IMG/VR virus record: IMGVR_UViG_3300038318_000112
Span: 1-64,000 of that record
From: an uncultured virus (IMG/VR IMGVR_UViG_3300038318_000112)
Taxonomy: Duplodnaviria; Heunggongvirae; Uroviricota; Caudoviricetes
Strand: one strand, 5' to 3'
Length of the DNA: 64,000 bases
Every line of letters starts with the position of its first letter. The first letter of the stretch is position 1. The notes below the pieces were generated by a model. It worked only from the letters and a program-made list of their open reading frames with translations. It searched no databases and was not told where the DNA came from. Below are positions 1-52,505 of the stretch, piece by piece. Both the position numbers and the translations under genes were made by a program.

Positions 1-613
1 AGTATGAAAACTGAGTGAGCGTACTGGCTTCATCGGAAAACGAATTTGATTCTCTCCCGAATACTTCTTTTTCGGCTGGCAGAGCAAAATAATCATCTGT
101 AGTCTGAGTGCCACTAGAAGCTCCGCCACCTACACCTGATATATTCTTGAATTGTTTGAATATCGGAAGCAATGTAGAAGGAAAAGCGTGCTTGTATATA
201 TCGTTGCACCACGTACGACGTGGGCAATCCTTCCAGCCGCCCGAGTTAGAGCCTGATGAGTTCATCATACCAGTTTCATCAACATTGTTACCAAAGCCAA
301 GCACATTTTTCTGTCCTACAATGAAATTGCACGTGCCTCCAGCCGTAAGAGTTTTTCCTCCGGCATTCATGAGCACGAGCACAATATCTTGAGCCGCATG
401 AGTTTCAGACAATCCTGATACCGTCTGAGCCATTGCTGTAAGAGGAACTGTTCTTTCATCTCCAACAGCCCAGTAATCAGCCAGACTTATAATGCCTGCA
501 TCTGCAGCAGATACCATGTCTGCTATCTCCTGGTCAGTCCCTCCGGCCCACGTAACAATTTTAACCGTACCAGAAGATGAGCCTCCCCTTCTTGTTATAA
601 AAGCATTTCCCAT
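1..613 (-). CDS. DUF6273-type receptor-binding/tail tip protein, 3' end off the window edge
   Basis: Read by hand from ATG at 613: MGNAFITRRGGSSSGTVKIVTWAGGTDQEIADMV...LPAEKEVFGRESNSFSDEASTLTQFSY; colinear with 51413-51978. Confidence 0.85.
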   Translation of the reverse strand, partial: MGNAFITRRGGSSSGTVKIVTWAGGTDQEIADMVSAADAGIISLADYWAVGDERTVPLTAMAQTVSGLSETHAAQDIVLVLMNAGGKTLTAGGTCNFIVGQKNVLGFGNNVDETGMMNSSGSNSGGWKDCPRRTWCNDIYKHAFPSTLLPIFKQFKNISGVGGGASSGTQTTDDYFALPAEKEVFGRESNSFSDEASTLTQFSY

Positions 614-16702: not shown

Positions 16703-17458
16703 TCAAAACAGTTTATTTCTTTTGATCTTGTCTTCTTTGCAAAATCTTTCTTCAATATCATGCAGAGTCACTCCTTTGGGACGAAAGCTCATAGGGCTAT
16801 CTTCATCAAGCCAAAGTAACGCCTTCCATCTATCCGGATAATTTTCTCTTAAATACCTCAGTTGCCCAAGTGTCTGATAATGGCAGAACCAACAGCCATC
16901 TCTTGCAAAGCTATTATAAACAGGACTCAATAAACTATTTTTTTTACACCACTCATAACAATCTTTTTCGGTCAGCTCTGCCTTAACAAGCGGATACAAA
17001 TTAAAGTCTTTACAATCCCTTATCTTTTCTTGCCTCTCGAGCTTCTTTTCGTCTACAGCGTACCCTACATACCAAAAACTATCCTTTAACTTTGTCTTAT
17101 ATTTTCTAATCGGGGACATTTTTAAGTTACTATTACACCATGCGCCGCGAACAATAGGAAAGCCATATATTTTCCCCCGATTCTCTTCTTTTGCTCTCTC
17201 TCCGCGAACTTGATAAAATTTATCGCAGTACGTTAAATCTGCTTTCAGATGCTTTATCTTGAACCCATACCTACGTTCAATAATTCTATCCGCCTTTTCT
17301 CTAAATTCTTCAACTTCGGGATAATAGGCGGATACTCCATTATCGAACATAACATCAACGGTAACTATCTCATCAAGCGGTAAATGCAATCTCTCTACAA
17401 TAACATCAATCATACAAATACTATCTTTACCATAGCTACAGCTTGCTATATATTTCAT
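16703..17458 (-). CDS. PAPS-reductase-family PP-loop protein
   Basis: SYGKDS PP-loop, WC...LK, YPL, R.GCWFC. Confidence 0.8.
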   Translation of the reverse strand: MKYIASCSYGKDSICMIDVIVERLHLPLDEIVTVDVMFDNGVSAYYPEVEEFREKADRIIERRYGFKIKHLKADLTYCDKFYQVRGERAKEENRGKIYGFPIVRGAWCNSNLKMSPIRKYKTKLKDSFWYVGYAVDEKKLERQEKIRDCKDFNLYPLVKAELTEKDCYEWCKKNSLLSPVYNSFARDGCWFCHYQTLGQLRYLRENYPDRWKALLWLDEDSPMSFRPKGVTLHDIEERFCKEDKIKRNKLF

Positions 17459-17982
17459 TTCGCCATCTCCCATTTATCACACGAACTTGCAGCAGGCTTT
17501 AGTCTTCCCCTTGCTTTCGCACACTTGCCGTATCTTGCTACCAATCCACCGCACATAATCTCTCTGCTCCATGCTCCGCACGTCTCGCACTTCTTCTCAG
17601 GCTTCGTCTCATACACTTCTACACCTGCAATCTTACCGAGATGTCCTTTATCATTCGGTAGTAATTCCTCACCGTCTATCCACGTAAGGCCGTAGCTTTC
17701 AGCACACATCTGCTCGATCTTGCAGCCTCTTGTGCCTTCCCAACCGGGAGCAAATACTACAACGTCTGCGGTAGACATAAGCTGCAAACTCCTGCCTAAA
17801 AACCATAATGGCTTTGCTGCTGTCGGAGCATCCTGAAAGAAACTGTCGATAACCTTTACGCAAGGGATTCCTCCGTCGTCGCTTGTGTATATCCTCTCGA
17901 TCTCCGCTATTATCTCCTGCCTTACTGTTAGAATCTCATCGTCTGTTTTTCCTCTCATCGGCTGCGATATAAATACTTTCAT
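17455..17982 (-). CDS. DUF4406/nucleoside deoxyribosyltransferase-like protein with C-terminal Cys cluster
   Basis: VFISQPMRG, AD...F.PGW...RGC.IE. Confidence 0.7.
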   Translation of the reverse strand: MKVFISQPMRGKTDDEILTVRQEIIAEIERIYTSDDGGIPCVKVIDSFFQDAPTAAKPLWFLGRSLQLMSTADVVVFAPGWEGTRGCKIEQMCAESYGLTWIDGEELLPNDKGHLGKIAGVEVYETKPEKKCETCGAWSREIMCGGLVARYGKCAKARGRLKPAASSCDKWEMAK

Positions 17983-21210: not shown

Positions 21211-21994
21211 TTTTTCTCGCCCTCAATATGCTAAACATCATCACCTGTAGCATCTGTAAACTATTACTCTTAGCACCTAAATAAGCACAACCATGAATAT
21301 ATTCCTTAAGTGTTGCTTCACTCAGAATGTCAAAATCCATCAGATATTCCTCGGACATCCATCTTGTCACTAACATTATATCAGTATCATCAATTCCACT
21401 CAATTCAAACTCTCTAAGAATCTTAATAATTGCAACACCCGATCCATCCTGGACTGCTTTACATAAATCCTCAGCACACTTTCTCGCCTTTATTACTTTT
21501 TCTTTATCTACCATCTTGATCAATCCCGGAGTATCGCATACCCTCAGTATATCAGGATCAGTTGTGAAGAACTTTAATTCATCCTTAGTATATGGTCGCA
21601 TAGTTATAGTGGTGGATCGACTTTGAATTGTTGGAAGTATTCTTGCAAATGATTTATTTTTTACTATCAGTGCAAAATAAACATTATTTGGAGGTTCCTC
21701 AATAACCTTTAATAGTGCATTTTCTGCTGCCGCAGTCATTTCCTGTATTTCATCAAATATAAATAATGTCGGGGTAGTTATGGTATATGCTAAATTAATA
21801 CATTCCCTAACCTCCTGAATACTGGTACCAAATATGATCAATGCTAAATTGGCATCCAATGAGATTTTCCTACACATGGTTTTTCTACCACTTCCAAGCT
21901 CCCCAGATATAATTAAAGTTCTGGGTAATGTATTATTACTTATAAAACTATCAATATTTCTCTGTACATATTCTTGACCAATTATATTAAGCAT
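21200..21994 (-). CDS. holB: Clamp loader delta' subunit (HolB-like)
   Basis: G..GSGRKT, AAENALLKVIEEPP, ILPTIQSR. Confidence 0.8.
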   Translation of the reverse strand: MLNIIGQEYVQRNIDSFISNNTLPRTLIISGELGSGRKTMCRKISLDANLALIIFGTSIQEVRECINLAYTITTPTLFIFDEIQEMTAAAENALLKVIEEPPNNVYFALIVKNKSFARILPTIQSRSTTITMRPYTKDELKFFTTDPDILRVCDTPGLIKMVDKEKVIKARKCAEDLCKAVQDGSGVAIIKILREFELSGIDDTDIMLVTRWMSEEYLMDFDILSEATLKEYIHGCAYLGAKSNSLQMLQVMMFSILRARKNED

Positions 21995-24065
21995 CTATCT
22001 TTCCTTTCGTGTAAATCATAAATGATAACTCAACTATAGTTTTTACATCCCCGCTCCATTTAATCTCAGGAAGAAGTTTAAATATCATTTCAGAAACATC
22101 GAATAATCCATCACAAGCAATATCATTTATCTTTGCCAGATTCTCTTCAGTTGGGGGAATATCCAAATCCGATTTAACAGTATCATGGAATAAATAATAT
22201 TTTTCACAATCCAGCAAGAATCTTGCATAGTCGTTAAGAAATAATTTTAAATCTTTTCCAGAGTTATATATTCGATCAATAATCAAGCAAGCTCTTTTAT
22301 CCTGCTCTAGCAATCTATGAGTTAAATCAAAATATACATTTATGTCCTCTGCTCCCAAAACTTCAAGAACCTTATTCAAATCAAGTTCAGGATATATTGA
22401 AAGACATTTATCAAGAAGTGTAATTGCATCTCTCATTCCACCTTTTGCCATTCTTGTAAGATAATCAAGGGATTCTTTAGATGCAATTACACCCTCTTGA
22501 TTTTTAATATATTCCAATCTGCTATGTATTATATCACTATCAATTTTGCTAAAATTAAACCTTTGTACTCGGGATAATATTGTTGCAGGTATCTTTTGTG
22601 GATCAGTTGTGCAAAGAATAAATATAGAAAATGCTGGAGGTTCTTCCAGTAGCTTCAACATTGCCTGCCATGCCCCGTTAGAAAGTGAATGACAGTTGTG
22701 AACTAATGCTCCATTTGCAAAATATGAATGGTGATTGTCAACTTCTATATCATACATTTCTACATATTCTCCATATAAGATTTCACTTGAGAAACCACAT
22801 CTGAACAATTCATCATTATATCCTCGTTTGTAAACCTCAACACTTTCCACCCTATTGAGTTTAGAAATTGAGTTTTCTTCAAATCCTTTACTATACAACT
22901 TTTCGTTCTGTGTCCTTTCCCATCCACCTCTATCGCCAGCTTTATCGTAGGATAAGCAAGGTCTACTTTGTAACAGGTAGGATATAGATGTTCCTTTCTT
23001 TGGCAATTCGTTTTTATCGGATATTCTAATATTGGTGCTTGATTCAGTTCGTTGTATAATTTCATTTGAGGAGTTGTATATTGACCATTGCCACCCCTCT
23101 GTGCGTTCCAGATTCCCCAAGTACCATTCGATTTCCTTGTTTCTATCATCTTCTCTATATTCTGTGAATCGTACATCGGGTTTTGTGTTAGCATACGTTG
23201 ACTTGATTTCTCTCTCAACATCTTTCCATATTCTGTTTGCCGAAATACTTGTTTTTCCTGTATAGAAATCAATTCGTTCTTGCACTCGTCTGAACAAGTC
23301 TTTCTTTGTTTGCAAGGTATCGTCTTGAATTGCTTTCCACAAATCACACAATACTGAACAACCATATTCTCGGCTGATTTCTTTCTTTTCTCCTGTGTCT
23401 GTGAAACAACACAACATTCGTGACAGCAATACTTCGCTACCTTTCGTCTGTTTGAAAATGTCTTTCCACAAGTTACGCAAATATGTTGGTGCATAAACAA
23501 TATCTCCTTCTCTTAAATTCTGTGCTTCAACCCAACCATAATTTGTAAAATATAAATGGTCAACGGTTGTAAATGTTTTTACACCATCTATTGTAACACA
23601 ACATAATCTATCTGTAAACACGCTGTTCTTAAATAAGTGTGTCACAGTACCTATACCAGACATATTACAAACTTTATCTCCAACTTTAATATCTTTTATT
23701 GGGATTGCACCTGATGGAGTTGTTATAAGTGTACTACCCTGAAAGCATTCATCTACAATATATATCTTATATTTACTATCAAGAGATTTCTTTTTACTAT
23801 CCCCAATAACTTTTCTGATATTATCCACGCCACTATTACTTGCGGCATCAATCTCAATGGGATTTCCTTTCCCTTCATTGATCATGCTGGCAAAGATTCT
23901 CGCTACAGTGGTTTTACCACAACCAGCAGGGCCGGTAAATAAATAAGCGTGCTGAAAACTTTTATCCCTAATCTGATTCTGTAGTATTGCTGATATTATT
24001 TCCTGCCCGCATAAATCCTCAAATGTCTTCGGACGGTACGTTACTGCTAATGATTTTTTTGCCAT
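21987..24065 (-). CDS. dnaX: Clamp loader gamma/tau subunit with intein
   Basis: YRP.TF, GPAGCGKTT, EIDAAS, DE|CH, LK.LEEPP, TILSR, GGMRDA; 341 aa after splicing. Confidence 0.93.
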   Translation of the reverse strand: MAKKSLAVTYRPKTFEDLCGQEIISAILQNQIRDKSFQHAYLFTGPAGCGKTTVARIFASMINEGKGNPIEIDAASNSGVDNIRKVIGDSKKKSLDSKYKIYIVDECFQGSTLITTPSGAIPIKDIKVGDKVCNMSGIGTVTHLFKNSVFTDRLCCVTIDGVKTFTTVDHLYFTNYGWVEAQNLREGDIVYAPTYLRNLWKDIFKQTKGSEVLLSRMLCCFTDTGEKKEISREYGCSVLCDLWKAIQDDTLQTKKDLFRRVQERIDFYTGKTSISANRIWKDVEREIKSTYANTKPDVRFTEYREDDRNKEIEWYLGNLERTEGWQWSIYNSSNEIIQRTESSTNIRISDKNELPKKGTSISYLLQSRPCLSYDKAGDRGGWERTQNEKLYSKGFEENSISKLNRVESVEVYKRGYNDELFRCGFSSEILYGEYVEMYDIEVDNHHSYFANGALVHNCHSLSNGAWQAMLKLLEEPPAFSIFILCTTDPQKIPATILSRVQRFNFSKIDSDIIHSRLEYIKNQEGVIASKESLDYLTRMAKGGMRDAITLLDKCLSIYPELDLNKVLEVLGAEDINVYFDLTHRLLEQDKRACLIIDRIYNSGKDLKLFLNDYARFLLDCEKYYLFHDTVKSDLDIPPTEENLAKINDIACDGLFDVSEMIFKLLPEIKWSGDVKTIVELSFMIYTKGKIDA
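22695..23747 (-). mobile_element. Class 1 intein (351 aa) in DnaX Walker B
   Basis: Starts CFQGSTLI; block B TVDHLY; ends MYDIEV..HHSYFANGALVHN, followed by Cys+1. Confidence 0.93.
22760..23494 (-). CDS. Nested +1-frame endonuclease: two Zn fingers plus Vsr/DUF559 (EDxHD-like) nuclease
   Basis: CxxC...CxxxC twice; KVDLAYP..KLAIEVDG..H...D..K..FL..IGWKVLRF; AAGGAG 9 nt before ATG 23494. Confidence 0.85.
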   Translation of the reverse strand: MHQHICVTCGKTFSNRRKVAKYCCHECCVVSQTQEKRKKSAENMVVQYCVICGKQFKTIPCKQRKTCSDECKNELISIQEKQVFRQTEYGKMLREKSSQRMLTQNPMYDSQNIEKMIETRKSNGTWGIWNAQRGGNGQYTTPQMKLYNELNQAPILEYPIKTNCQRKEHLYPTCYKVDLAYPTIKLAIEVDGKGHRTKSCIVKDLKKTQFLNSIGWKVLRFTNEDIMMNCSDVVSQVKSYMENM

Positions 24066-25542: not shown

Positions 25543-25580
25543 TTACAATTATATTGTAACACATAATATATAAATGTCAA
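25543..25580 (-). promoter_or_regulatory. Repeated strong promoter, copy 2
   Basis: Same core sequence as 20055-20092. Confidence 0.8.
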
Positions 25581-25612
25581 TAGTTTTTGACAAAGTTTTT
25601 CAAGTTTTTTTT

Positions 25613-25646
25613 AAATAAAATTGCCCGAGATTCAACCCGGGCAATT
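25613..25646 (-). terminator. Intrinsic terminator after clamp gene
   Basis: AATTGCCCG/CGGGCAATT stem followed by T-rich tail on minus strand. Confidence 0.7.
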
Positions 25647-25656
25647 AATCAATTAA

Positions 25657-26730
25657 TTATTCTTCATCTTCAAGCAACGCCAATATCTGAGTAACCCCAT
25701 TTGATTTTATTTTCAGTGCGTTTTCATCACCGTACCAAATCTCTACTACTTCATCATTCATTGCTTCCACTTGAGTTTTTAGCATTTCAGAATCTGCAAA
25801 GCACATAAAGTTTGTTGGATTTTCTGAACCTACAAAATTAATTGTTTCAATACCAGAAACCTTTTTATTCTGTATGATTACTGATCCGCTCTTAGCAAAA
25901 TTAAGAGTGATCCCATTCTGATCATACGGATCAATAAATAATGATATTCTATCAATTACTGCAAGTAATATATCTTTTGGGATTTTACACATTGAAGGGA
26001 ATTTAGTATCGAGATACGCTGATATTTCAGTTGCTGGAAAGTCTGAAATACCATCCATAATCTCACTATAAATTACTACATTATCAGTGCTAAATGCAAG
26101 TTTATTTTGATCCCGATATACTTTTATATCCTCCTGATTATTCAATACTAAGAGATTAATCAACTGAGCCGGAAGTAATACTGGTTCATCTAATATGGTG
26201 GCATCATTAAAAGTAATGGTCATTGAATCAGATGTTATGGTTTTATCATTTATATAGTATCCAGTTAATGAAGGCACTTCAAATGTCTTCGCAAGTGCCG
26301 GTTTATTTATATCAAATATATTTTTTACATCTAAAAGTTTAATGTTTGATTTTGCTTCGTACTTTTCTATGTCGGGAACTGGAAACTTTACATTGCCTGA
26401 TTCATCGGCAATAAGGGGTATCTTATATGTCCCATCTGCATCTATTTCTAGCTCACTATCAGATACAAATAATTTTATTTTATCCTGGGTAATCTTTGAA
26501 ATTAGTTTGCTAAATAAATCAGCATCAACAACCACATCAAAATCTTTATCATCCGGTTCTACCTTTATCTCATATAAGATTGTATTGGTCATATCTGTGG
26601 CGACTAAATCAAGTGTATTTTCTTTGTGCTTTAGTCCAATCATTGAAGTAAGTGGGATCAATTTATTCATTCCCGCTCCTTTGATCACCGTACTTGTGCC
26701 TGCCTGCAATTCAATTCTTAATAATTCCAT
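25657..26730 (-). CDS. dnaN: Sliding clamp (DNA Pol III beta-like)
   Basis: 357 aa, three-domain size; L.L.ATD motif and repeated FP motifs; near clamp loader genes. Confidence 0.75.
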   Translation of the reverse strand: MELLRIELQAGTSTVIKGAGMNKLIPLTSMIGLKHKENTLDLVATDMTNTILYEIKVEPDDKDFDVVVDADLFSKLISKITQDKIKLFVSDSELEIDADGTYKIPLIADESGNVKFPVPDIEKYEAKSNIKLLDVKNIFDINKPALAKTFEVPSLTGYYINDKTITSDSMTITFNDATILDEPVLLPAQLINLLVLNNQEDIKVYRDQNKLAFSTDNVVIYSEIMDGISDFPATEISAYLDTKFPSMCKIPKDILLAVIDRISLFIDPYDQNGITLNFAKSGSVIIQNKKVSGIETINFVGSENPTNFMCFADSEMLKTQVEAMNDEVVEIWYGDENALKIKSNGVTQILALLEDEE

Positions 26731-26745
26731 TTTTTTAATCCTCCT

Positions 26746-27318
26746 TTATTTCAAACTCATTAAAGAGTATGCCTCTTTACGAAGCTCCACATTAGACTTA
26801 AATAATCCCCGGATTGTCGCAGTTCTTGTTTTAGATCCCCTGCTCTTAATACCCCTTGCAGTCATACAGCTATGTTCACCTTCTACAACGACTAGTACAT
26901 CCTGAGAACCTGTAGCCAACTGAATAATTTCAGCTATATCTGAACCTATTCTTTCCTGAAGCTGTAATCGTTTTCCAACCATATCTGCTATTCTTGCAAA
27001 CTTGCTTAATCCTAAAACTTTTCCCCTTGGAATATATGCAATAGAAACTGTCATATTATACATCAAAGCCATATGATGTTCACAATAGCTAAAGATTGGA
27101 ATATCCTGTACAACAACTAAATCATTATTATCTGTATCAAAGCATTTACAGAATTTTTCTGCGATTTCCTCGTTCCTATAATTCATTCCTTCAAAAACTT
27201 CCTGATACATTTTAGCGACCCTTTTAGGTGTCTCTTTCAGTCCTTCCCTATCTGGGTCATCTCCCAATGCTTCTAATATTTCTCTTACTGCTTTCTCAAT
27301 TCTGATTTTATCAATCAT
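26746..27318 (-). CDS. folE: GTP cyclohydrolase I
   Basis: [29 protein letters not shown]. Confidence 0.97.
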
Positions 27319-27319
27319 T

Positions 27320-27961
27320 CTATACACCTCTTTTCTGTGGGTCCCATATAATCTTATGAAGCTGAGCTTGTATCCTCCAATTATTGATATAATGAGTATT
27401 CATATAATTTACAATATCTTCCAATTCAATATTACCAAATACAGGACTAATATAAATCGTTGGAACACTATTCATTGATTCTGTAATCTGTAATGCTTTA
27501 TTTAAGTCGTCTTTACAACCTACCACGAATTTCAAAACATCTGTAGCTAGTAATGAATCTACATTTCCCAAACTCATCTTATCTTCCATCTTACTTGTAG
27601 GACATTTATAATCCATTGTGAAAGTAATGCCGATTGGAAAATCAATAGGTCTTTCAATAGTACCATTTGTTTCAATATTAATCTTGTAATCTAAACGACA
27701 TAAAGCTCTTACAAGATTTTTAATTCCTGGATGTATCATTGGTTCTCCGCCTGTGATTGTTATCATATTACAATCATAAGTTGAAACCTTCTTAATAATT
27801 TCCTCAATAGACATTACTTCATAATTGTTCTCTTCACATCCATATCTTGTATCACAATAACTACAATTAAGATTACAACCATATAATCTTATAAAGGTAC
27901 ATCGGTATCCTGCACGGATACCTTCTCCTTCTATACTGTTGAATATTTCTACTACTTTCAT
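27320..27961 (-). CDS. queE: 7-carboxy-7-deazaguanine synthase (radical SAM)
   Basis: [33 protein letters not shown]. Confidence 0.95.
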
Positions 27962-28296
27962 TCCTGTTCCTCCTTGAAAATTGCAATATTTCCTTCACTT
28001 TCCTGCACTGAAACTTTATAACAAAATGGTACTAAATCGTGAATCCATTTTGCCATATTCTCTGCGGTTGGATTGAAATCTACAACATCATTGATATACT
28101 GATGGTCTAGTTTATCACTAATCATTGTCTTGATGTGCTTAAAATCTACAATCATCCCATCCTGATTAAGTGTTTCATTTTTGCAAAAAACTGTAATAAT
28201 CCAATTATGTCCGTGAATATTACTGCATTTACTTTCATAACTTAATTTAAGATTATGAGCTCCAGCTACTTCCATTCTTTTCGATACATAATACAT
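27958..28296 (-). CDS. queD: 6-carboxy-5,6,7,8-tetrahydropterin synthase
   Basis: AH.L, C..IHGHNW, G...DF, LDH, NPTAEN. Confidence 0.95.
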   Translation of the reverse strand: MYYVSKRMEVAGAHNLKLSYESKCSNIHGHNWIITVFCKNETLNQDGMIVDFKHIKTMISDKLDHQYINDVVDFNPTAENMAKWIHDLVPFCYKVSVQESEGNIAIFKEEQE

Positions 28297-28311
28297 AATA
28301 AAAACCTCCTT

Positions 28312-28812
28312 TTATTTACTGCCTAAAAATTCTTTCAATGTGTTCAGATAATCTGTTTCGTAAGAGATATCAACCCTTGCTGGTAAGTAATAATTATATC
28401 CATCTTTAGAAAAAATCGTCTTGATCAAATCTAACTCTTCTAAAGATTTGAAATAACACATTAATTTCTTTCTTTGCGGATAAACCTCAGCAAACGGCTT
28501 TCCATTTCTCATAATTTTATAACAATTAACTGAAGAATAAAATCTATTCTCAGAAAGAAACTGTCTTACTAAAGATATTTCTTCTCCATACTTTTTCTGT
28601 TTCTGTTTTACACACTTTGATTTCTTTGATTTTTCTTCTTTAGGTTTTACGTTTTCTAAAAATTTCCACCATCTTTTCAATGTGACCTCACTAAACTGTT
28701 TTTCCACTCCAACATCTTTTCCGGAAATAATCTTTATAGACACTTTTCCTTCTTCAACAGAAAGTAATTCTGCTTTGATATTGCTGTCTTTTTTAGATAC
28801 ATATACATCCAT
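28312..28812 (-). CDS. Hypothetical protein heading the queD-queE-folE-dnaN operon
   Basis: TLKRWWK motif; AAGGAGG RBS. Confidence 0.65.
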   Translation of the reverse strand: MDVYVSKKDSNIKAELLSVEEGKVSIKIISGKDVGVEKQFSEVTLKRWWKFLENVKPKEEKSKKSKCVKQKQKKYGEEISLVRQFLSENRFYSSVNCYKIMRNGKPFAEVYPQRKKLMCYFKSLEELDLIKTIFSKDGYNYYLPARVDISYETDYLNTLKEFLGSK

Positions 28813-28851
28813 TACATTGTCCTCCTTTTATGTATTTCTTAACTTTTTTAT

Positions 28852-28880
28852 ATTGTAACACATAAAAGTAGAATTGTCAA
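28852..28880 (-). promoter_or_regulatory. Promoter variant upstream of queD operon
   Basis: TTGACA-17 nt-TACAAT with TG extension. Confidence 0.75.
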
Positions 28881-28885
28881 ATTTT

Positions 28886-29734
28886 TTAGAAAAGTTTTTT
28901 AGATTTTTTCTTTACAAAGAATAAAATCTCATCTGATTCTTTTGGATAAGGAATACTTACAATAGAACTGAGCCAAGCAGAAGGGACATATGATGCCATT
29001 TTATTATAGAAGTTTTTCATTTCTGAAGATACCTTATCACTTTGGAAAAATTCTTTCATCTTTTTCACTTTCATAACAAGTCCTATCTCATTTATTACTT
29101 CAAAACCTAATTCATCTAGTTTTTCTTTCAGTTCATCATAACCCCATTCATATACATGCGCCGCATACTGTGTATCATATCCATTTCCTGGTGTATTTGG
29201 ACAACTTAAGAACATTGTAGAATCTTTATTCATTATCTTATAGCATTCTTCTAAGCTCTTAGAACCTATATCCTTATGCATATGTTCTAAAGCGCTTGTA
29301 TAAATTACAAGGTCAGCAAAGCCTTTTTCAATATGATCACTCATTTCTGCAACATTAGAAAGAATCCAGTCTATCTTAAATGGATAATAATCTTCTAAAT
29401 CTTCTTCTTTCAGCTGTCTATTTGCCGCACCTCTTTTTGCTTCTCTTATATTTGTTTCACAAATATCCACTCCGGTATAACTGTTAATATCTTTGGCATA
29501 ATATCTTAACAATGGAAGGATCAGAGACCTTCCACAACAAACATCCACAACATTCATTCCTTTTTTAGCAAGCATTGTTGCGGAATGATGCTGGATATAG
29601 TTCATGACATCTAGCTGAGTGAAAAATCCATCTCTAAACTGTGAATAGAAGTTCCTCATCTGATAAGTGGTACATAATACATCTTCAGGATTCATTCCTT
29701 CTTCTATCTTATGAACAATTTTCTTTTCGATCAT
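28886..29734 (-). CDS. Class I SAM-dependent methyltransferase
   Basis: VVDVCCGR motif I, YTGVD motif II, ALEH, LSCPN, H..EW...E. Confidence 0.8.
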   Translation of the reverse strand: MIEKKIVHKIEEGMNPEDVLCTTYQMRNFYSQFRDGFFTQLDVMNYIQHHSATMLAKKGMNVVDVCCGRSLILPLLRYYAKDINSYTGVDICETNIREAKRGAANRQLKEEDLEDYYPFKIDWILSNVAEMSDHIEKGFADLVIYTSALEHMHKDIGSKSLEECYKIMNKDSTMFLSCPNTPGNGYDTQYAAHVYEWGYDELKEKLDELGFEVINEIGLVMKVKKMKEFFQSDKVSSEMKNFYNKMASYVPSAWLSSIVSIPYPKESDEILFFVKKKSKKLF

Positions 29735-29746
29735 AATAATTTTCTC

Positions 29747-30880
29747 CTAAAATAATCTCTTTCTATAATTGAAATTTCTTGACTTATTGTTAAGTTTTTC
29801 CACTTTTTTATTCATATACATAGCATTAAAAAGAATTCTATTATCTCTATGTTCTGTCAGTTCATCCAATGTGAATCCGTATTCTTCTATTATCTTATTA
29901 AAGTTATCAATAGCTTTTTTTGGAAGATGTGAATAATGTTTAGGGTCTAATTTCCTGTTATTAGATACAGCTATATTTCCAAAATCAGTCATTATAGACC
30001 CCATAGCTCCTACCATAATCCAAGCGGTACTATCTGCGGAAGTTATTGGATACTTTTCAAGGATGGAAAAATCTGTCATCCCAAAGGTGTGTACTTTTAC
30101 ATTCGGATTACTTGATTTTCTAATAATAATATAACAATTTTCAATAAACTTATCTCTTGTCTCTCTAGTATTACCAACAACTCCTCCAAGTGCTATATAG
30201 TCCATTTTCCTTCCTTTGTCATCAGTCCACTCCAAAGCCTGTTCAAGGTATTTCATTGGTTCTCCTGCGTGGAAAGTATAAAGCATTTTTTGTGGTTCTT
30301 TCATCTTAGGATACATATATAAATAATTTTCCCAAGTCTTGCGGGCAGATTTCTCAAAATCTTTGGTAGTAAGTCCTTCCGATAAAAGCCCTGGAATAAC
30401 GTCAAGCTGTCCATATAAATCAATATCCTCTGAACGCTCATTTATCCATTCTATATATTCATTAACATCAATCTTTATTCCTTTCGTCCAAGCACTAAAT
30501 GCTCCGGAATCAACAAACAATTTTCCTGGCTTGATAAAATCCTTCATATTATCAAAAGTTCTTTTTCCTTGGTCTGCAAAGGAAAATAATGCATCACTAT
30601 TCACCGGTGGTTTGTCAGTTGTTGATGCTCCTGCAAAGTATAGTTTCATAAATTTCTTTATTGTCTCCTTTCCATACTTGTCACACCCTCCGAAAAATAT
30701 ATTCAAATTCTGTTCTCTTTGCTTCTTGTTCATATCTTTCCTTCCTTCACATATATATTTTGAAGTAAATCTGTACTGGTAGTCTCCGTGTGACAATAAT
30801 CGGTTATAGTTAGAAATATCATAAATGTCAATTGAACTATTAGGTCGAAAAGCGTAACCTCCTGCTAAATAAAGTTCCAT
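29747..30880 (-). CDS. TGT-fold base-exchange enzyme, DpdA-like
   Basis: FVDSGAFS, LDVI, IALGG, VHTFG, SADS..W; sits in que cluster; TAATG overlap with polA. Confidence 0.8.
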   Translation of the reverse strand: MELYLAGGYAFRPNSSIDIYDISNYNRLLSHGDYQYRFTSKYICEGRKDMNKKQREQNLNIFFGGCDKYGKETIKKFMKLYFAGASTTDKPPVNSDALFSFADQGKRTFDNMKDFIKPGKLFVDSGAFSAWTKGIKIDVNEYIEWINERSEDIDLYGQLDVIPGLLSEGLTTKDFEKSARKTWENYLYMYPKMKEPQKMLYTFHAGEPMKYLEQALEWTDDKGRKMDYIALGGVVGNTRETRDKFIENCYIIIRKSSNPNVKVHTFGMTDFSILEKYPITSADSTAWIMVGAMGSIMTDFGNIAVSNNRKLDPKHYSHLPKKAIDNFNKIIEEYGFTLDELTEHRDNRILFNAMYMNKKVEKLNNKSRNFNYRKRLF

Positions 30881-33129
30881 TATTCTACCTCCACACTTTC
30901 CCCATACCAATTATAAGAAACTTCACAATCACATTTGAAAGGTAATTCTATTAAATGTGATGGAGCCATTCTCATAAGATATGATAATCTTTCTTTAACT
31001 TCTTTAGCGTTTTCTTTTGGACATTCTCCAATAACTTCATCGTGTACACATATAAGCAAATGAAAATCTAATTCTTTCATTCTTTCATCATTATTGATGG
31101 AAATCATTGCTAACTTTGCCATATCTGCCGCTGATCCTTGTACTCGTGCATTTACACACTGTCTTTCCGCTTGTGCTATAAATCCTCCATTATCTTTAAC
31201 TTCAATTCCTTTTTCCCGCAGTGAATCTTTAAGTTTATTTCTTTGAGCGTATCCGTATGCCTTATCAAGTTTAGCGGTATATGATTTCTTTACTGATTCT
31301 GGTACTTCCTTCTGCTCGGAATCAAATGCAAGTGGATCAATATTATGATCTGTAAACTCATATTTTTCAAGTTGCATATCAAGTAAATGTCTCCTTCTGC
31401 TCCAAGCCGTTTCTACATATCCTTTTTCTTTAGCATCTTTTTGGCTTTGCTTAATGAAATCTGCTAACTCTGGAAAAGCTTTCAATACAGCATTATAAAT
31501 ACCTTGAGCTTCTTTTGTTGATACTCCTAATTGTTCACCTATAGACGGAATCTGTCTACCATACAAAATTCCCAAAACAATCGATTTTGCTTGAGTTCGT
31601 CTTTCTTTTCCAGCAGGATTTACTGTTCCGTCGTCTCTGAACTCTTTACACTCTTCATAAGGTTTATGAAAGGCTAATGAAGCTATTGTGGCATATATAT
31701 CTTTTCCATTTATAAATGCTTCTTTCATCTTTTTATCCTTAGATAAATGAGCTGTAACCATTGGCTCCTGTTGTGAATAATCTCCGCCTATCAGCACATA
31801 TCCATCTTGTGCTTTGAACATTTGACGGATTTCCTTATTGTGTGAAGGTATGTTCTGTAGATTTGGATTAGACGAACTAAACCTTCCCGTCTTTGCCCCA
31901 TACTGATTAAAACTCGCATGAATCCTTCCATCCTTCTTCATCACAGCTGGCAATTTATCAATATAAGTTGAAAGTAATTTATCAACTTCCCTGATACCTA
32001 ATATTGCTTCACAAAGATTTCTTAATTTCTTATCTTGACCTTTTGCAAAATCTTTAAGTATATCTTCTCCGGTTCCTCGCTTAGATTTTTTACTTGGAGA
32101 TTCGAGTCCAAGTATGTCATAAAATAATATGGCAAGTTGCGTGGGACTGGTTAAAGAAATAGGATCGGATAATTTATTATTCAGATGTCTTGCTCTATAA
32201 GAATCAATTATATCCTTATAATCAGAAATTGCCTCGTTTGCTATCTGTTCTTTTTCTTCCTTGATCTTATGATATTTTTCTTTAAGGCTCTTACAAACTT
32301 TTGCATCTAAACAAACTCCTCTATCCTCCATATCACATACTACTCTTAATACTGGCATCTCAATATTTTTAAATACGCTCATTGGTCCGGACATTGATCT
32401 TGATTCTAATATGTTTTTCTGATACTGATAAAGCTCATAAGTTTTTATTGCATCTCCTGCCGCATAAAGATACCCAACATTTATTGGTATTTGGTCAAAA
32501 GTCACTCCTCTAAAAAGTGAATCAAATTTCAATGCTTCTTTATCTTTTGAATCACAATATTTCAAATGTAAATCCTTTAAAGCATGACTTTCATTTTCAT
32601 CTATGCAATATGCCGCCAACATTGTATCCCAGTAGCAAGAAATATCAATTCCAACTGTATGCCTTAATACTCTAATATCATATTTTCCATTGTGCATGAT
32701 ATATTTTATCTGAGTATCAACTGGAAATACATCTTTAAAATCTTCCTCAGTCAATTGATTATCTGTCCTTGCTCCAGTTACGTAAGATTTATGATTAATT
32801 GGTATATAGGCCGGCTTTTTACTGGGCGTATATAAACATACTCCAACTATATCAATTTCCATTGGGTCAAGACCAGTTGTTTCAGTATCAATAGCACAAA
32901 TACCATTTGCTATAATTGACCTGCAATAATATTCTAAATCATTTTTATTTCTGATCAAAATATAGTCATCTTTATGGTTGGCAAGTTTTGATTCAGCAGT
33001 AGCAGAAATCATCTGCACTTTTGCCGCAATACTGCTACCAGTTGTTCTTGATGTTCTAGTAACCTTATTCTTAGTTTTACCAATAAGACCTTTATCATCA
33101 ACTTTGGGTCTTGCAAATGACAGTGGCAT
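30880..33129 (-). CDS. polA: Family A DNA polymerase with 3'-5' exonuclease
   Basis: DTETTG, HN.KYD, TGRFSS..PNLQNIP, DYSQQE, R...K...LG..YG, VHDE. Confidence 0.95.
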   Translation of the reverse strand: MPLSFARPKVDDKGLIGKTKNKVTRTSRTTGSSIAAKVQMISATAESKLANHKDDYILIRNKNDLEYYCRSIIANGICAIDTETTGLDPMEIDIVGVCLYTPSKKPAYIPINHKSYVTGARTDNQLTEEDFKDVFPVDTQIKYIMHNGKYDIRVLRHTVGIDISCYWDTMLAAYCIDENESHALKDLHLKYCDSKDKEALKFDSLFRGVTFDQIPINVGYLYAAGDAIKTYELYQYQKNILESRSMSGPMSVFKNIEMPVLRVVCDMEDRGVCLDAKVCKSLKEKYHKIKEEKEQIANEAISDYKDIIDSYRARHLNNKLSDPISLTSPTQLAILFYDILGLESPSKKSKRGTGEDILKDFAKGQDKKLRNLCEAILGIREVDKLLSTYIDKLPAVMKKDGRIHASFNQYGAKTGRFSSSNPNLQNIPSHNKEIRQMFKAQDGYVLIGGDYSQQEPMVTAHLSKDKKMKEAFINGKDIYATIASLAFHKPYEECKEFRDDGTVNPAGKERRTQAKSIVLGILYGRQIPSIGEQLGVSTKEAQGIYNAVLKAFPELADFIKQSQKDAKEKGYVETAWSRRRHLLDMQLEKYEFTDHNIDPLAFDSEQKEVPESVKKSYTAKLDKAYGYAQRNKLKDSLREKGIEVKDNGGFIAQAERQCVNARVQGSAADMAKLAMISINNDERMKELDFHLLICVHDEVIGECPKENAKEVKERLSYLMRMAPSHLIELPFKCDCEVSYNWYGESVEVE

Positions 33130-33777
33130 TTATCCCACTCTCCTTGATGATCTTCTTGATGGTGTTTCAGATTCTGCTGACCTTCTTCTTACTGGTTCTG
33201 AACCATCCGATTTCTCTTCATCCGGGAATGCTCCATTATCAATATAAAACTGCATATCATCAGCAGATTTTTCCATAATAAATCCCCCTAAGAATTCTGG
33301 CTTTTCTATATTTGTAAGGTCAACTGGAGTTACATCTGGCATTGGATAAATATCATAAGTTGTCTTTTTATCACCTTTTGCTCCATGTCTTTCTATCTCA
33401 AATACATGATTGATCAGATCGGGATATCTATTAAATAGTGCAGAAAGTTTCTTGCTGAATGTTTTTCCTCTTTCCCAAATCTTAATTTTATTATCATTGA
33501 GGTCATACATAGCAATCATACAAACCACACTTGTTTTCATTCCCGCAAGACAGAATGGACAATCCTCAACAGGTGAATCATAATCTTCTCTTGCACAACT
33601 CACATAACGATCAAACTCTCCAACCTTAACTTTGTGGCAGTTATAAAAATCCATTTCTGAATAATCTCTATAAAGAAACTGCACTCTTGCTACGTCACCA
33701 TCATTCTGAAGTTTTAACCATTCACTCGAATTATTACTTCCATACTTGTCAACATCATTTGGGTTAATTCTTCCCAT
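33130..33777 (-). CDS. Single-stranded DNA-binding protein (gp32-like)
   Basis: W.KL..DG...V.FL, C...CPFC, ER.G.KG...TTY; between recA and polA. Confidence 0.75.
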   Translation of the reverse strand: MGRINPNDVDKYGSNNSSEWLKLQNDGDVARVQFLYRDYSEMDFYNCHKVKVGEFDRYVSCAREDYDSPVEDCPFCLAGMKTSVVCMIAMYDLNDNKIKIWERGKTFSKKLSALFNRYPDLINHVFEIERHGAKGDKKTTYDIYPMPDVTPVDLTNIEKPEFLGGFIMEKSADDMQFYIDNGAFPDEEKSDGSEPVRRRSAESETPSRRSSRRVG

Positions 33778-47863: not shown

Positions 47864-48088
47864 TTGATTTTCGCACGCGTCTTTGCCGGGCTAAAAAGGA
47901 TAACGCTGCATCAACTCCGCCACACGAACGTCAGCATCATGATTAGCATGGGTCTTGATATAAAAACGATCCAGTCTCGCGGCGGATATTCGAACGCCAC
48001 TACACCGCTGAACATCTATGGACATCTATTCAACCGTGATGATAAATCAGTCGCAGACGGCATCGCTGATATCGCACAGAAAAAGTAA
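47864..48088 (+). pseudogene. Tyrosine integrase C-terminal remnant
   Basis: HQLRHT box and IYGH catalytic Tyr only; no N-terminal ~300 aa upstream. Confidence 0.85.
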
Positions 48089-50875: not shown

Positions 50876-51279
50876 CCTTTTCCGCCTCCTCAACGGTCCT
50901 ATATTGTGCTAACTCAATTTTACTCTCATTCCGTCTGTAAGTTGGTACTGACATTTATTCTCCTTGCGCACACATTCGTGTGCGATTATTAGATTCAAGA
51001 TTATATACAGCCGAAGGGAGCGAACCCATAAGCAATGTCGGCGNNNNNNNNNNATCATAATAGTTTCCTGTTACCGAGAATTTTTCAAATATCTGATCTC
51101 GGTATATTTTGAACTGCTTCAATAATTCGTTCATCCTTTTCCGCCTCCTCAACGGTCCTATAATGTTCTGTTGTGCGTTGCTACTGACATTTATTCTCCT
51201 TACGCACACATTCGTGTGCGATTATTAGATTCAAGATTATATACAGCCGAAGGGAGCGAACCCATAAGCAATGTCGGCG
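50795..51279. repeat. Two variant copies (50795-51043 and 51054-51279) flanking a 10-N scaffold gap
   Basis: Direct repeat identical except one short block and two SNPs. Confidence 0.9.
51203..51220 (-). other. DGR-type target hairpin (second copy at 50967-50984)
   Basis: CGCACAC-GAAT-GTGTGCG perfect 7-bp stem, 16 nt after the stop of the DUF6273 gene. Confidence 0.65.
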
Positions 51280-52505
51280 CTGTCCACGTCGGCGGTGCCG
51301 CTGCCGCTCACAAGGCAGAAAATGGTGCTGTCGCCGCTCTGCGGGGACCTTTCCCACCAATATTCAGCTGTTCCGGAGGCGGAATATTTTATTATGTTCG
51401 CACCAGTTTTATAGTATGAAAACTGAGTGAGCGTACTGGCTTCATCGGAAAACGAATCTGATACACTCCCGAATACTTCTTTTTCGGCTGGCAGAGCAAA
51501 ATAATCATCTGTAGTCTGAGTGCCACTAGAAGCTCCGCCACCTACTCCTGATACATTTTGGAACTGCTTAAATATGCCCTGTAAGACGCTCGGAAAAGCA
51601 TTCTTGTAGATTCCGTTGCACCACGTACGACGTGGACAACTGCTCCATCCTCCAGTATTGGATCCGGATGAATTCATCACGCCTGATTCAAATGTACCAT
51701 TACTATATCCAAGCACATTTTTCTGTCCTACAATGAAATTGCACGTGCCCCCAGCCGTAAGAGTTTTTCCTCCGGCATTCATGAGCACGAGCACAATATT
51801 CTGTGCTGCGTGCGTTTCAGACAATCCTGATACCGTCTGAGCCATTGCAGTAAGCGCGACGGTCCTTTCATCACCAACCGTCCAATAATCAGCCAGGCTG
51901 ATTACTCCGGCATCTGCTGTTGATACCATGTCTGCTATCTCCTGGTCAGTCCCTCCGGCCCAAGTGACAGTTTTGACTGAAACTGATACGTTTGTTGTTG
52001 CTGTCTTTGTAATTCCGTTTTCTGTATACGATGCCGTTACCGGAACAGTGCCGAATGATGACAGCGTGCTACCGTCAGCCGGACTGAACGTCGGTGTTAC
52101 TGTTGCTGTCGAGCCTAAACTGTATGTTGCAGTAGCCACGCATCCGCTCATATCAAGCGCATCGCCTTTGTAGTACGAAACTTTTGTAGGAGCAGTAATA
52201 GCGAGACTTGATAGCACTTCAATTTGAATAGCCTGTACTGTAGTGTATGTCTTTCCTTCATTGATCCACGATATTGTTACAGACGTATTTGCTTCTTGAA
52301 GAGTTGATCCCTGCGCAGGACTTGATGTCCAGTCTGTGACAGTAGTTAATGTTTCGGTGTCTCCGTCGCTGAGTACGCTTTTTACCACCATCCCAGTCAG
52401 ATCAAGTGTCTCTCCTGCTTTATACAGTACTTTGGTAGGCGGAGTCGTTATACGAATTCCTACTAAGATTTCTCCACCGCCTCCACTGTTTTTTACACTA
52501 AGCAT
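51237..52505 (-). CDS. Tail fibre/RBP: two bacterial Ig-like domains plus DUF6273-type domain with DGR VR-like C-terminus
   Basis: PTK..Y..G..LD..G twice; YW.VGD; WWERSP...FC.V...G.......A....G.AP..CI. Confidence 0.85.
   Translation of the reverse strand: MLSVKNSGGGGEILVGIRITTPPTKVLYKAGETLDLTGMVVKSVLSDGDTETLTTVTDWTSSPAQGSTLQEANTSVTISWINEGKTYTTVQAIQIEVLSSLAITAPTKVSYYKGDALDMSGCVATATYSLGSTATVTPTFSPADGSTLSSFGTVPVTASYTENGITKTATTNVSVSVKTVTWAGGTDQEIADMVSTADAGVISLADYWTVGDERTVALTAMAQTVSGLSETHAAQNIVLVLMNAGGKTLTAGGTCNFIVGQKNVLGYSNGTFESGVMNSSGSNTGGWSSCPRRTWCNGIYKNAFPSVLQGIFKQFQNVSGVGGGASSGTQTTDDYFALPAEKEVFGSVSDSFSDEASTLTQFSYYKTGANIIKYSASGTAEYWWERSPQSGDSTIFCLVSGSGTADVDSADIAYGFAPFGCI

Follow-up and report, generated by a model that had tools for sequence, protein, structure and literature searches.

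A class I methyltransferase in the place of QueC: a candidate route to an esterified deazaguanine in phage DNA

The deazaguanine locus of an uncultured virus of the Caudoviricetes raises the question of which DNA base a phage makes when its cluster holds a methyltransferase gene and no queC. The locus lies at positions 26,746 to 30,880 of the window, by which we mean the whole stretch of 64,000 nucleotides (nt) analysed here, positions 1 to 64,000 of IMG/VR record IMGVR_UViG_3300038318_000112. It encodes FolE, QueD and QueE, whose pathway ends at 7-carboxy-7-deazaguanine (CDG), together with a guanine transglycosylase of the DpdA1 type, enzymes that work on DNA post-replication, and a class I methyltransferase dependent on S-adenosylmethionine (SAM). 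The original prediction had left two options, that CDG is inserted and methylated, or that a preQ0 (7-cyano-7-deazaguanine) or preQ1 (7-aminomethyl-7-deazaguanine) derivative supplied by the host is methylated. Our analysis favours the former, in the form of CDG insertion followed by methyl ester formation, on the near exclusion of queC, the absence of QueF from all 40 methyltransferase loci compared and a best structural match to CmoM, and it disfavours the latter. Because synthesis ends at the acid form, DpdA adjoins and the methyltransferase usually replaces QueC, an undescribed methyl-ester base is likely; that DpdA inserts CDG and the methyltransferase then methyl-esterifies it in DNA is, judged from sequence, modestly probable.

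The methyltransferase and queC across phage loci

The survey of gene neighbourhoods that the original prediction had proposed showed the methyltransferase tracking the absence of queC. Methyltransferase loci were collected in seven scans, the larger ones represented by their best 80 matches and three of the five viral ones largely redundant; the 349 loci obtained, many of them repeated, reduced to 51 at 85% identity. dpdA was present in 41 of the 51, and the ten without it comprised seven contigs of at most 2.3 kb, two loci cut near the gene and one in another context. As a baseline we used the best 80 of 483 DpdA loci, 27 of 80 T-fold loci and three cultured phages; loci without any supply gene were dropped, and dereplication at 80% DpdA identity left 94 loci, 40 with the methyltransferase and 54 without. 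Over all 94, queC was found in 4/40 loci with the methyltransferase versus 36/54 without, and queF in 0/40 versus 8/54. The same held in de novo loci, defined as dpdA plus at least two of folE, queD and queE (queC in 3/27 with the methyltransferase versus 24/28 without, or 25/28 counting the QueC-like locus L397), and in importer-only loci (1/13 versus 12/26). Thus, the methyltransferase and queC are almost mutually exclusive.

Since kin share genes, we tested independent pairs on the DpdA tree, of which there were 12; queC ran opposite to the methyltransferase in 7.1 of them and together with it in 0.7, giving p values with a median of 0.039 and a range of 0.004-0.29. The closest DpdA relatives of the window, in loci L353-L355 (63-65% identity), have queC and no methyltransferase, and in temperate loci of the order parB-dpdA-X-T-fold-yhhQ position X is occupied either by queC or by the methyltransferase. 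An early view that the methyltransferase fails to track queC, taken from loci L009 and L081, was overturned by dereplication and the baseline. The T-fold protein was likewise rejected as a partner specific to the methyltransferase, since 20 of the 27 loci examined have it alongside queC or on its own.

Other enzymes were seen near dpdA. Of the four de novo loci lacking both the methyltransferase and annotated queC, Pfam marks L397 as QueC-like; in the remaining three, dpdA has a glycosyltransferase or a carbon-nitrogen hydrolase nearby. In L397 (8888-10525) dpdA is followed by a TAGT-like glycosyltransferase and then by the divergent QueC-like protein. In L402 (6745-7848) and L403 (6851-7861), which are without QueC and methyltransferase, a GT1-family glycosyltransferase stands directly upstream of dpdA, making them candidates for glycosylated CDG; in the QueC-less L420 (6183-7118; also L429) queE and folE are separated by the gene of a carbon-nitrogen hydrolase, a candidate for an alternative amidation or hydrolysis step. 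A guanine/cytidine-type deaminase recurs in the tailoring slot (L358, 6467-7030; L352, 9585-10061; L457, 4291-4824), and the copy in L358 forms a fusion with residues 1-21 of a lost methyltransferase. A SAM synthetase gene adjoins the dpdA-methyltransferase modules of L077 (11848-12657) and L157. The methyltransferase locus in another context, L089, lies on a contig of the Candidate Phyla Radiation and combines a distant methyltransferase (41%) with queE, a phosphoribosyltransferase, MazG, dTMP kinase, a radical SAM protein and DegT, without dpdA, which would fit a possible nucleotide-level pathway.

Gene order and the search for missing steps

The order polA-dpdA-methyltransferase-promoter-orf-queD-queE-folE-dnaN, as first described, was confirmed by Pfam and PHROG assignments, with all genes on the minus strand:

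30880..33129, minus strand: polA, family A polymerase (PF00476, E 6e-90), directly upstream of dpdA, the frames abutting
29747..30880, minus strand: dpdA, DpdA1-type DNA guanine transglycosylase, 377 aa, ATG at 30880 (phrog_887, E 6.3e-52), C-terminus RKRLF
28886..29734, minus strand: SAM-dependent methyltransferase of class I, 282 aa, matching PF13489 (E 1.4e-9) and allied families, predicted to act on the carboxyl group of dCDG, C-terminus SKKLF
28852..28880, minus strand: sigma70-type promoter, a consensus match only, upstream of orf166-queD-queE-folE-dnaN
28312..28812, minus strand: orf166, basic protein with no Pfam or PHROG family
27958..28296, minus strand: queD, CPH4 synthase (PF01242, E 2.9e-26), with the CxxxHGH motif (CSNIHGH)
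27320..27961, minus strand: queE, CDG synthase, a radical SAM enzyme (phrog_2076, E 1.6e-41)
26746..27327, minus strand: folE, GTP cyclohydrolase I (PF01227, E 2.5e-66), likely start ATG at 27318 from the spacing of the ribosome-binding site
25657..26730, minus strand: dnaN, phage sliding clamp (PF00712, phrog_947)

The promoter between the methyltransferase and the orf is present as TTGACA-17-TACAAT with an extended -10 (11/12, 28880-28852); it is the top one of 20 consensus matches in 26600-31200, a number no higher than shuffled sequence gives (23 +/- 5). orf166 was found in 5 of the 80 methyltransferase loci of the first survey, only in close relatives, and is probably outside the pathway. 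An Rfam search of the window gave no match. In dnaX (21987-24065, minus strand) an intein is present, with an ORF for an HNH/DUF559 endonuclease (22760-23500, minus strand) nested in another frame.

The absence of queC, queF and gat-queC, asserted earlier from the window, was upheld over the full record of 85,059 nt, 21 kb of which lie beyond the 64-kb window. The PF06508 profile of QueC had no match in the whole record, a six-frame motif scan of it gave no QueC-like or QueF-like open reading frame (ORF), and local profiles for queF, gat and DUF6884 had no match in the cluster phage, where ArcS (DUF5591) was not searched with a profile of its own. The hallmark of a preQ0-pathway cluster of the CAjan and Rosebush type, queC or gat-queC, had 0 matches in the record and was likewise absent from complete relatives. 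The sole SGGxDS motif in a long ORF belonged to a PAPS-reductase-like gene of a second phage in the record. Whole-record QueC searches of other methyltransferase phages found the gene in 0/5 of one set, the relative G001 being among the queC-free records, and in 2/13 of a second set, both at loci already known to hold queC; a hidden queC was therefore rejected, as PF06508, regex scans and 18 related records gave none in QueC-less loci. A PAPS-reductase-like ORF of the cluster phage (16703-17473) was rejected as a stand-in for QueC, PF01507 being found in 0/5 related methyltransferase phages, a weak search in that the window protein itself falls just below the family cut-off.

The claim that the genome is nearly complete had to be divided. 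The record joins two phages, one of 33% GC (about 1-47.9 kb), which carries the cluster, and one of 46% GC (47,885-85,059); around 47 kb the GC content jumps from 33% to 46%, terminase and capsid-type genes are separate in each part, and a 77-nt exact repeat bounds the 46% GC phage, 47,885-47,961 recurring at the record end. The second phage is of temperate type and has an N gap at 51044-51053; window positions 1-562 and 51,413-51,974 are 85% identical. The cluster phage itself looks nearly whole: compared with its 56-kb relative G001, classed as complete from terminal repeats that a simple end test did not see, its missing part falls in the tail/lysis region. A single contig in the probable source run covers 25565-33500 with zero differences, and a 4,269-nt contig from the run of another study has the identical gene order with no room for queC. 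In run X2 a joint at 26734-30440 skips most of the cluster; its shorter arm has only 20 letters, and it hints that a strain with a different module co-exists.

The two enzymes and their C-terminal tails

The methyltransferase belongs to a large family, with 699 clusters of homologues at 90% identity and, among 50%-clusters, 54 representatives at E <1e-30. Its motif I, DVCCGR (D64-R69), and the acidic D90 at the end of strand 2 are invariant, as is characteristic of class I enzymes; over the various module types, 78 positions show conservation of at least 95%, and the window enzyme retains every conserved family residue. The deepest branches are all from QueC-less de novo loci, and the family ranges over lytic and temperate phages, Faecalibacterium prophages and one archaeal contig of a metagenome-assembled genome. 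The observation that the protein lacks DNA-methyltransferase motifs was correct: (D/N)PP(Y/F) and PCQ are absent, and no DNA-methylase family is among its nine Pfam matches. Five cultured-phage proteins matched it weakly (23-26%), and the two examined sit in pyrimidine-modification clusters and lie outside the core of the family. The two are in Stenotrophomonas phage AXL3 and a spring phage (L350, L351), beside a MazG-like gene, a thymidylate synthase homologue and dCMP deaminase.

The AlphaFold2 model of the methyltransferase (pLDDT 89.7) has a Rossmann fold. In a wide VIA structure search 4HTF was on top (Z 18.2, rmsd 3.7 over 207 residues, 14% identity), the next match having Z 16.9. As far as we could draw on PMC10516636, 4HTF is CmoM (SmtA), which methyl-esterifies the carboxylate of cmo5U in tRNA. 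The shared fold does not establish function; the conserved R27, R69, H151, Y190, H193 and Y195 are, from the alignment, candidates for a carboxylate clamp of the CmoM type.

The window DpdA is 41-44% identical to those of phages Dp-1, MS1 and Flasso (Dp-1: 41%, E 1e-49) and 32% identical to that of 9g (31.7%, E 5e-26), at 90-96% coverage. In the accessible part of PMC10164549 the catalytic and base-binding set of the Salmonella Montevideo enzyme is given as Asp95, Phe99, Asp130, His181 and Asp256. The counterparts in the window, mapped by motif and spacing, are D124, F128, D160, H204 and D283, and D124, D160, H204 and D283 are invariant in 18 aligned relatives. From its family and its position between polA and dnaN, this DpdA would act on DNA rather than on tRNA. 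MTase-type and QueC-type DpdAs, that is those of methyltransferase and queC loci, differ beside the base-binding His and also within the GG loop.

Hydrophobic C-terminal tails of a kind typical of clamp-binding motifs link the two enzymes. Of the 51 ORFs in the cluster phage, three have a basic-LF tail at the C-terminus, namely those for DpdA, the methyltransferase and the PAPS-reductase-like protein. Across loci, in counts uncorrected for kinship, the methyltransferase had such a tail in 16/20 loci with a DpdA tail versus 0/20 without, and the same tail occurred in queD 0/16, queE 1/15 and folE 4/16; an LF-type methyltransferase tail was found in 13/23 loci with dnaN nearby versus 3/39 without. 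The tails are likely a clamp-binding tag with DnaN as the putative docking partner, and the sharing favours methyltransferase action on nascent DNA. The methyltransferase is probably not a free small-molecule enzyme, given that its tail and the DpdA tail vary together; its earlier likening to small-molecule methyltransferases holds at the level of fold, where many such matches occur, and not for its target, which is probably DNA. The PAPS-reductase-family protein (16703-17473, minus strand) carries a basic-LF tail as DpdA and the methyltransferase do and is possibly another DNA-acting enzyme.

Taken together, we propose the following mechanism. FolE, QueD and QueE would make CDG; DpdA, if it accepts CDG, would exchange guanine for it in newly made phage DNA; DpdA and the methyltransferase would dock on the phage clamp through their basic-LF tails; and the methyltransferase would turn the CDG carboxylate, its presumed site, into a methyl ester, giving a predicted new base, 7-methoxycarbonyl-7-deazaguanine. 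Insertion of CDG has a precedent in a DpdA2, which performs it at low level. The modification may protect against restriction nucleases while keeping the major groove free of an extra negative charge. Where queC or an importer of preQ0 is present, the nitrile would first be hydrolysed by a DUF6884 protein resembling DpdC.

Exceptions, rival substrates and known systems

That last step is suggested by the exceptions. All four loci having both the methyltransferase and queC carry one subfamily of DUF6884, and so do two methyltransferase-importer loci; the subfamily also stands in L358 beside the 21-residue methyltransferase remnant, and in L357 with queC and no methyltransferase. The idea that DUF6884 as a whole is specific to the methyltransferase was narrowed to this one subfamily, since L353, L377 and L444 have the canonical form together with queC only. 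According to the portions of the literature available to us, DUF6884 is the dpdC domain (per a preprint) and a YaaA-like DNA-binding fold, and DpdC converts dPreQ0 to the amide nucleoside dADG; the methyltransferase-linked subfamily may carry on to the acid. In the importer loci CDG salvage may be another source; the accessible part of PMC6593275 infers from genomes that CDG is a salvageable precursor in gut bacteria, and the queC-plus-importer loci point the same way. The T-fold partner in importer loci gave a full-length weak match to archaeal QueF-L (5JYX, E 0.073), with Cys21 kept and Asp28 and His62 replaced. Temperate phages (L434-L460, L082) encode T-fold proteins of this QueF-L-like kind, about 100 aa long and likewise with Cys21 kept and Asp28/His62 changed; Cui 2023 reported that no phage sequence aligned with QueF-L. 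In L010 a PreQ1 riboswitch (RF00522, 3087-3130) lies ahead of the phage yhhQ importer.

A number of observations weigh against esterification of CDG in DNA. The p value of the full independent-pairs test reaches 0.29, and pairs restricted to de novo loci were not significant (6 pairs, median p 0.125). The lead of 4HTF over the next match is just 1.3 Z, CmoM is not among the Foldseek top matches shown, and Foldseek returned a flat class I list of many N-, C- and O-methyltransferases with TM about 0.5; the methyltransferase is acidic (pI 5.7), and the tail pattern was chosen after viewing the data. The window DpdA nests in the QueC-type clade of the DpdA tree. It has V235, seen in 24/35 QueC-type versus 3/32 MTase-type enzymes, and a non-basic residue at position 205, which is basic in 21/32 MTase-type enzymes; neither association was significant under the independent-pairs test on the tree, and pocket residues were dropped as independent support. 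The product shown for DpdC is, in the source as available, an amide and not an acid. Importers are the only supply in 10/40 methyltransferase loci, six of them with the QueF-L-like T-fold; the cargoes measured for QueT and YhhQ are, in the accessible literature, preQ0, preQ1, q and Q, not CDG, and the complete chromosome of the import-only host Faecalibacterium prausnitzii had no QueD or QueF and weak QueC-family matches only. Finally, the module in this phage may be a recent mosaic with a preQ0-preferring DpdA.

Four rival explanations deserve weighing with these points. The one we rate highest among them, although still unlikely, is that the enzyme N-methylates the amine of preQ1, the amide of 7-amido-7-deazaguanine (ADG) or the amidine of G+, the host or import providing the missing steps, as a class I analogue of the known methyltransferase DpdM. 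The import-only loci with QueT or YhhQ, the riboswitch ahead of yhhQ, the amide yielded by DUF6884/DpdC, the QueF-L-like partner and the QueC-type pocket residues of the window DpdA would all suit it; however, under this reading queC and queF should be enriched next to the methyltransferase, the opposite of what is seen, and the module of T-fold and riboswitch is also found without the methyltransferase. Next, and rather improbable, comes methylation of the deazaguanine ring (N2, N1, N3) or of a neighbouring base, regardless of the substituent at position 7, to which a single conserved active site over all supply types would correspond. The top sequence matches of the methyltransferase in the Protein Data Bank (PDB), cap guanine-N7 methyltransferases at E 8.6e-5 over residues 43-105 only, agree with it, as does the class I enzyme HuiC proposed to O-methylate the preQ0 ring, but it leaves the exclusion of queC without a reason, and O6 or N1 methylation would disrupt G:C pairing, as textbook knowledge has it.

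Esterification of free CDG, with DpdA then inserting the neutral ester, would lead to the same base by another order of steps and appears quite improbable. Poor insertion of CDG by DpdA speaks for it (67 per million nt by DpdA2 of phage VH7D, the low level stated in the accessible text of Cui 2023), as do the acidity of the methyltransferase and the small-molecule enzymes among its many fold matches; it is opposed by a tail common to the methyltransferase and DpdA and absent from QueD and QueE, and by a basic residue adjoining the base-binding His in the 21 of 32 MTase-type DpdAs noted above, a count uncorrected for kinship. Very unlikely, in our estimate, is a module left as a recent mosaic, in which the DpdA, being of preQ0 type, draws on preQ0 from the host and the methyltransferase is short of substrate, or the transfer of some other SAM-derived group. 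The window DpdA is indeed 64% identical to that of the QueC-type locus L355 and about 39% to that of the MTase-type locus L001, despite 96% identity of the methyltransferase with the one in L001; yet an independent strain retains the identical intact arrangement, and every conserved methyltransferase residue is present. Methyl-esterification of inserted CDG is the reading that we carry forward.

Comparison with published systems delimits what is new. Dp-1, whose DNA contains dPreQ1 (PMC6884629), resembles the window, as do MS1 and Bacillus phage Flasso, in its DpdA, in folE, queD and queE beside dnaN and in a similar replication module; unlike the window, the three have queC and queF, and Dp-1 and Flasso are not among the five cultured phages matched by the methyltransferase. 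QueC-less clusters are published and are not new in themselves: as far as Cui 2023 was accessible, the QueC-less Cellulophaga phage phiST makes 2'-deoxy-7-deazaguanosine (dDG) with DpdA3 plus DpdL and STSV-2 holds a trace of dCDG, and, in the corresponding portion of Hutinet 2019, Mycobacterium phage Bipper, without queC, might carry CDG. The Bipper cluster has no annotated methyltransferase. In phiST and Bipper, as in the window, the pathway halts at CDG and a tailoring enzyme takes the place of QueC, but there the enzyme is a QueD-like T-fold decarboxylase, and in the window it is a class I methyltransferase with DpdA1 and a single canonical queD. That queD carries CxxxHGH and therefore is not the DpdL decarboxylase paralogue; no second QueD-like gene with LxxxHRHxF was found in the cluster phage.

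Methylating enzymes are also known. DpdM, the dPreQ1 methyltransferase of phiSM and VH7D, is by the available text of Cui 2023 a DUF3109/YkgJ protein with CxxxCxxCC that needs the QueC-QueF product. The window enzyme shares with it a place within a phage deazaguanine cluster and differs in being a Rossmann class I protein, without CxxxCxxCC, never beside queF and seldom beside queC. CmoM is its best match in the VIA fold search, and the chemistry proposed for it is the same, an esterified carboxylate on a nucleic-acid base; CmoM, however, is 14% identical, acts on tRNA and has an R26/W124/Y247 clamp. HuiC of huimycin biosynthesis is, in the accessible part of PMC7439116, a SAM-dependent methyltransferase clustered with homologues of folE, queD and queE and proposed to O-methylate the preQ0 ring; its context is a secondary metabolite, with QueC and without DpdA. 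In a search that left subscription reviews and preprint supplements aside, we found no paper on this methyltransferase family or on a CDG methyl ester in DNA, and the accessible texts of the huimycin paper, a 2026 deazapurine mining preprint and the MED16 paper do not describe the family. The tailoring step of the methyltransferase is real and probably new, within a type of system already known.

In its widest form, to which we give about even credence, the proposal is that widespread replisome-tethered carboxyl methyltransferases put 7-methoxycarbonyl-7-deazaguanine into phage and prophage DNA as a ninth, ester-bearing deazaguanine, appearing as dCDG in alkaline digests; eight such bases of phage DNA are listed in the part of Cui 2023 available to us. 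As a speculation that we hold with little confidence, the ester might be an activated intermediate, aminolysed by the Cys-containing T-fold partner, so that a SAM-driven route would substitute for the ATP-driven QueC. If methyl-esterification of CDG is true, phage DNA would gain a further deazaguanine base with a named enzyme and a named mass (dCDG +14); such DNA would be affected in base-calling, and carboxylates in DNA could be labelled in a site-directed manner by way of a SAM-dependent handle. The family is common and therefore would bear on the escape of phages from restriction and type IV nucleases in gut and anaerobic communities.

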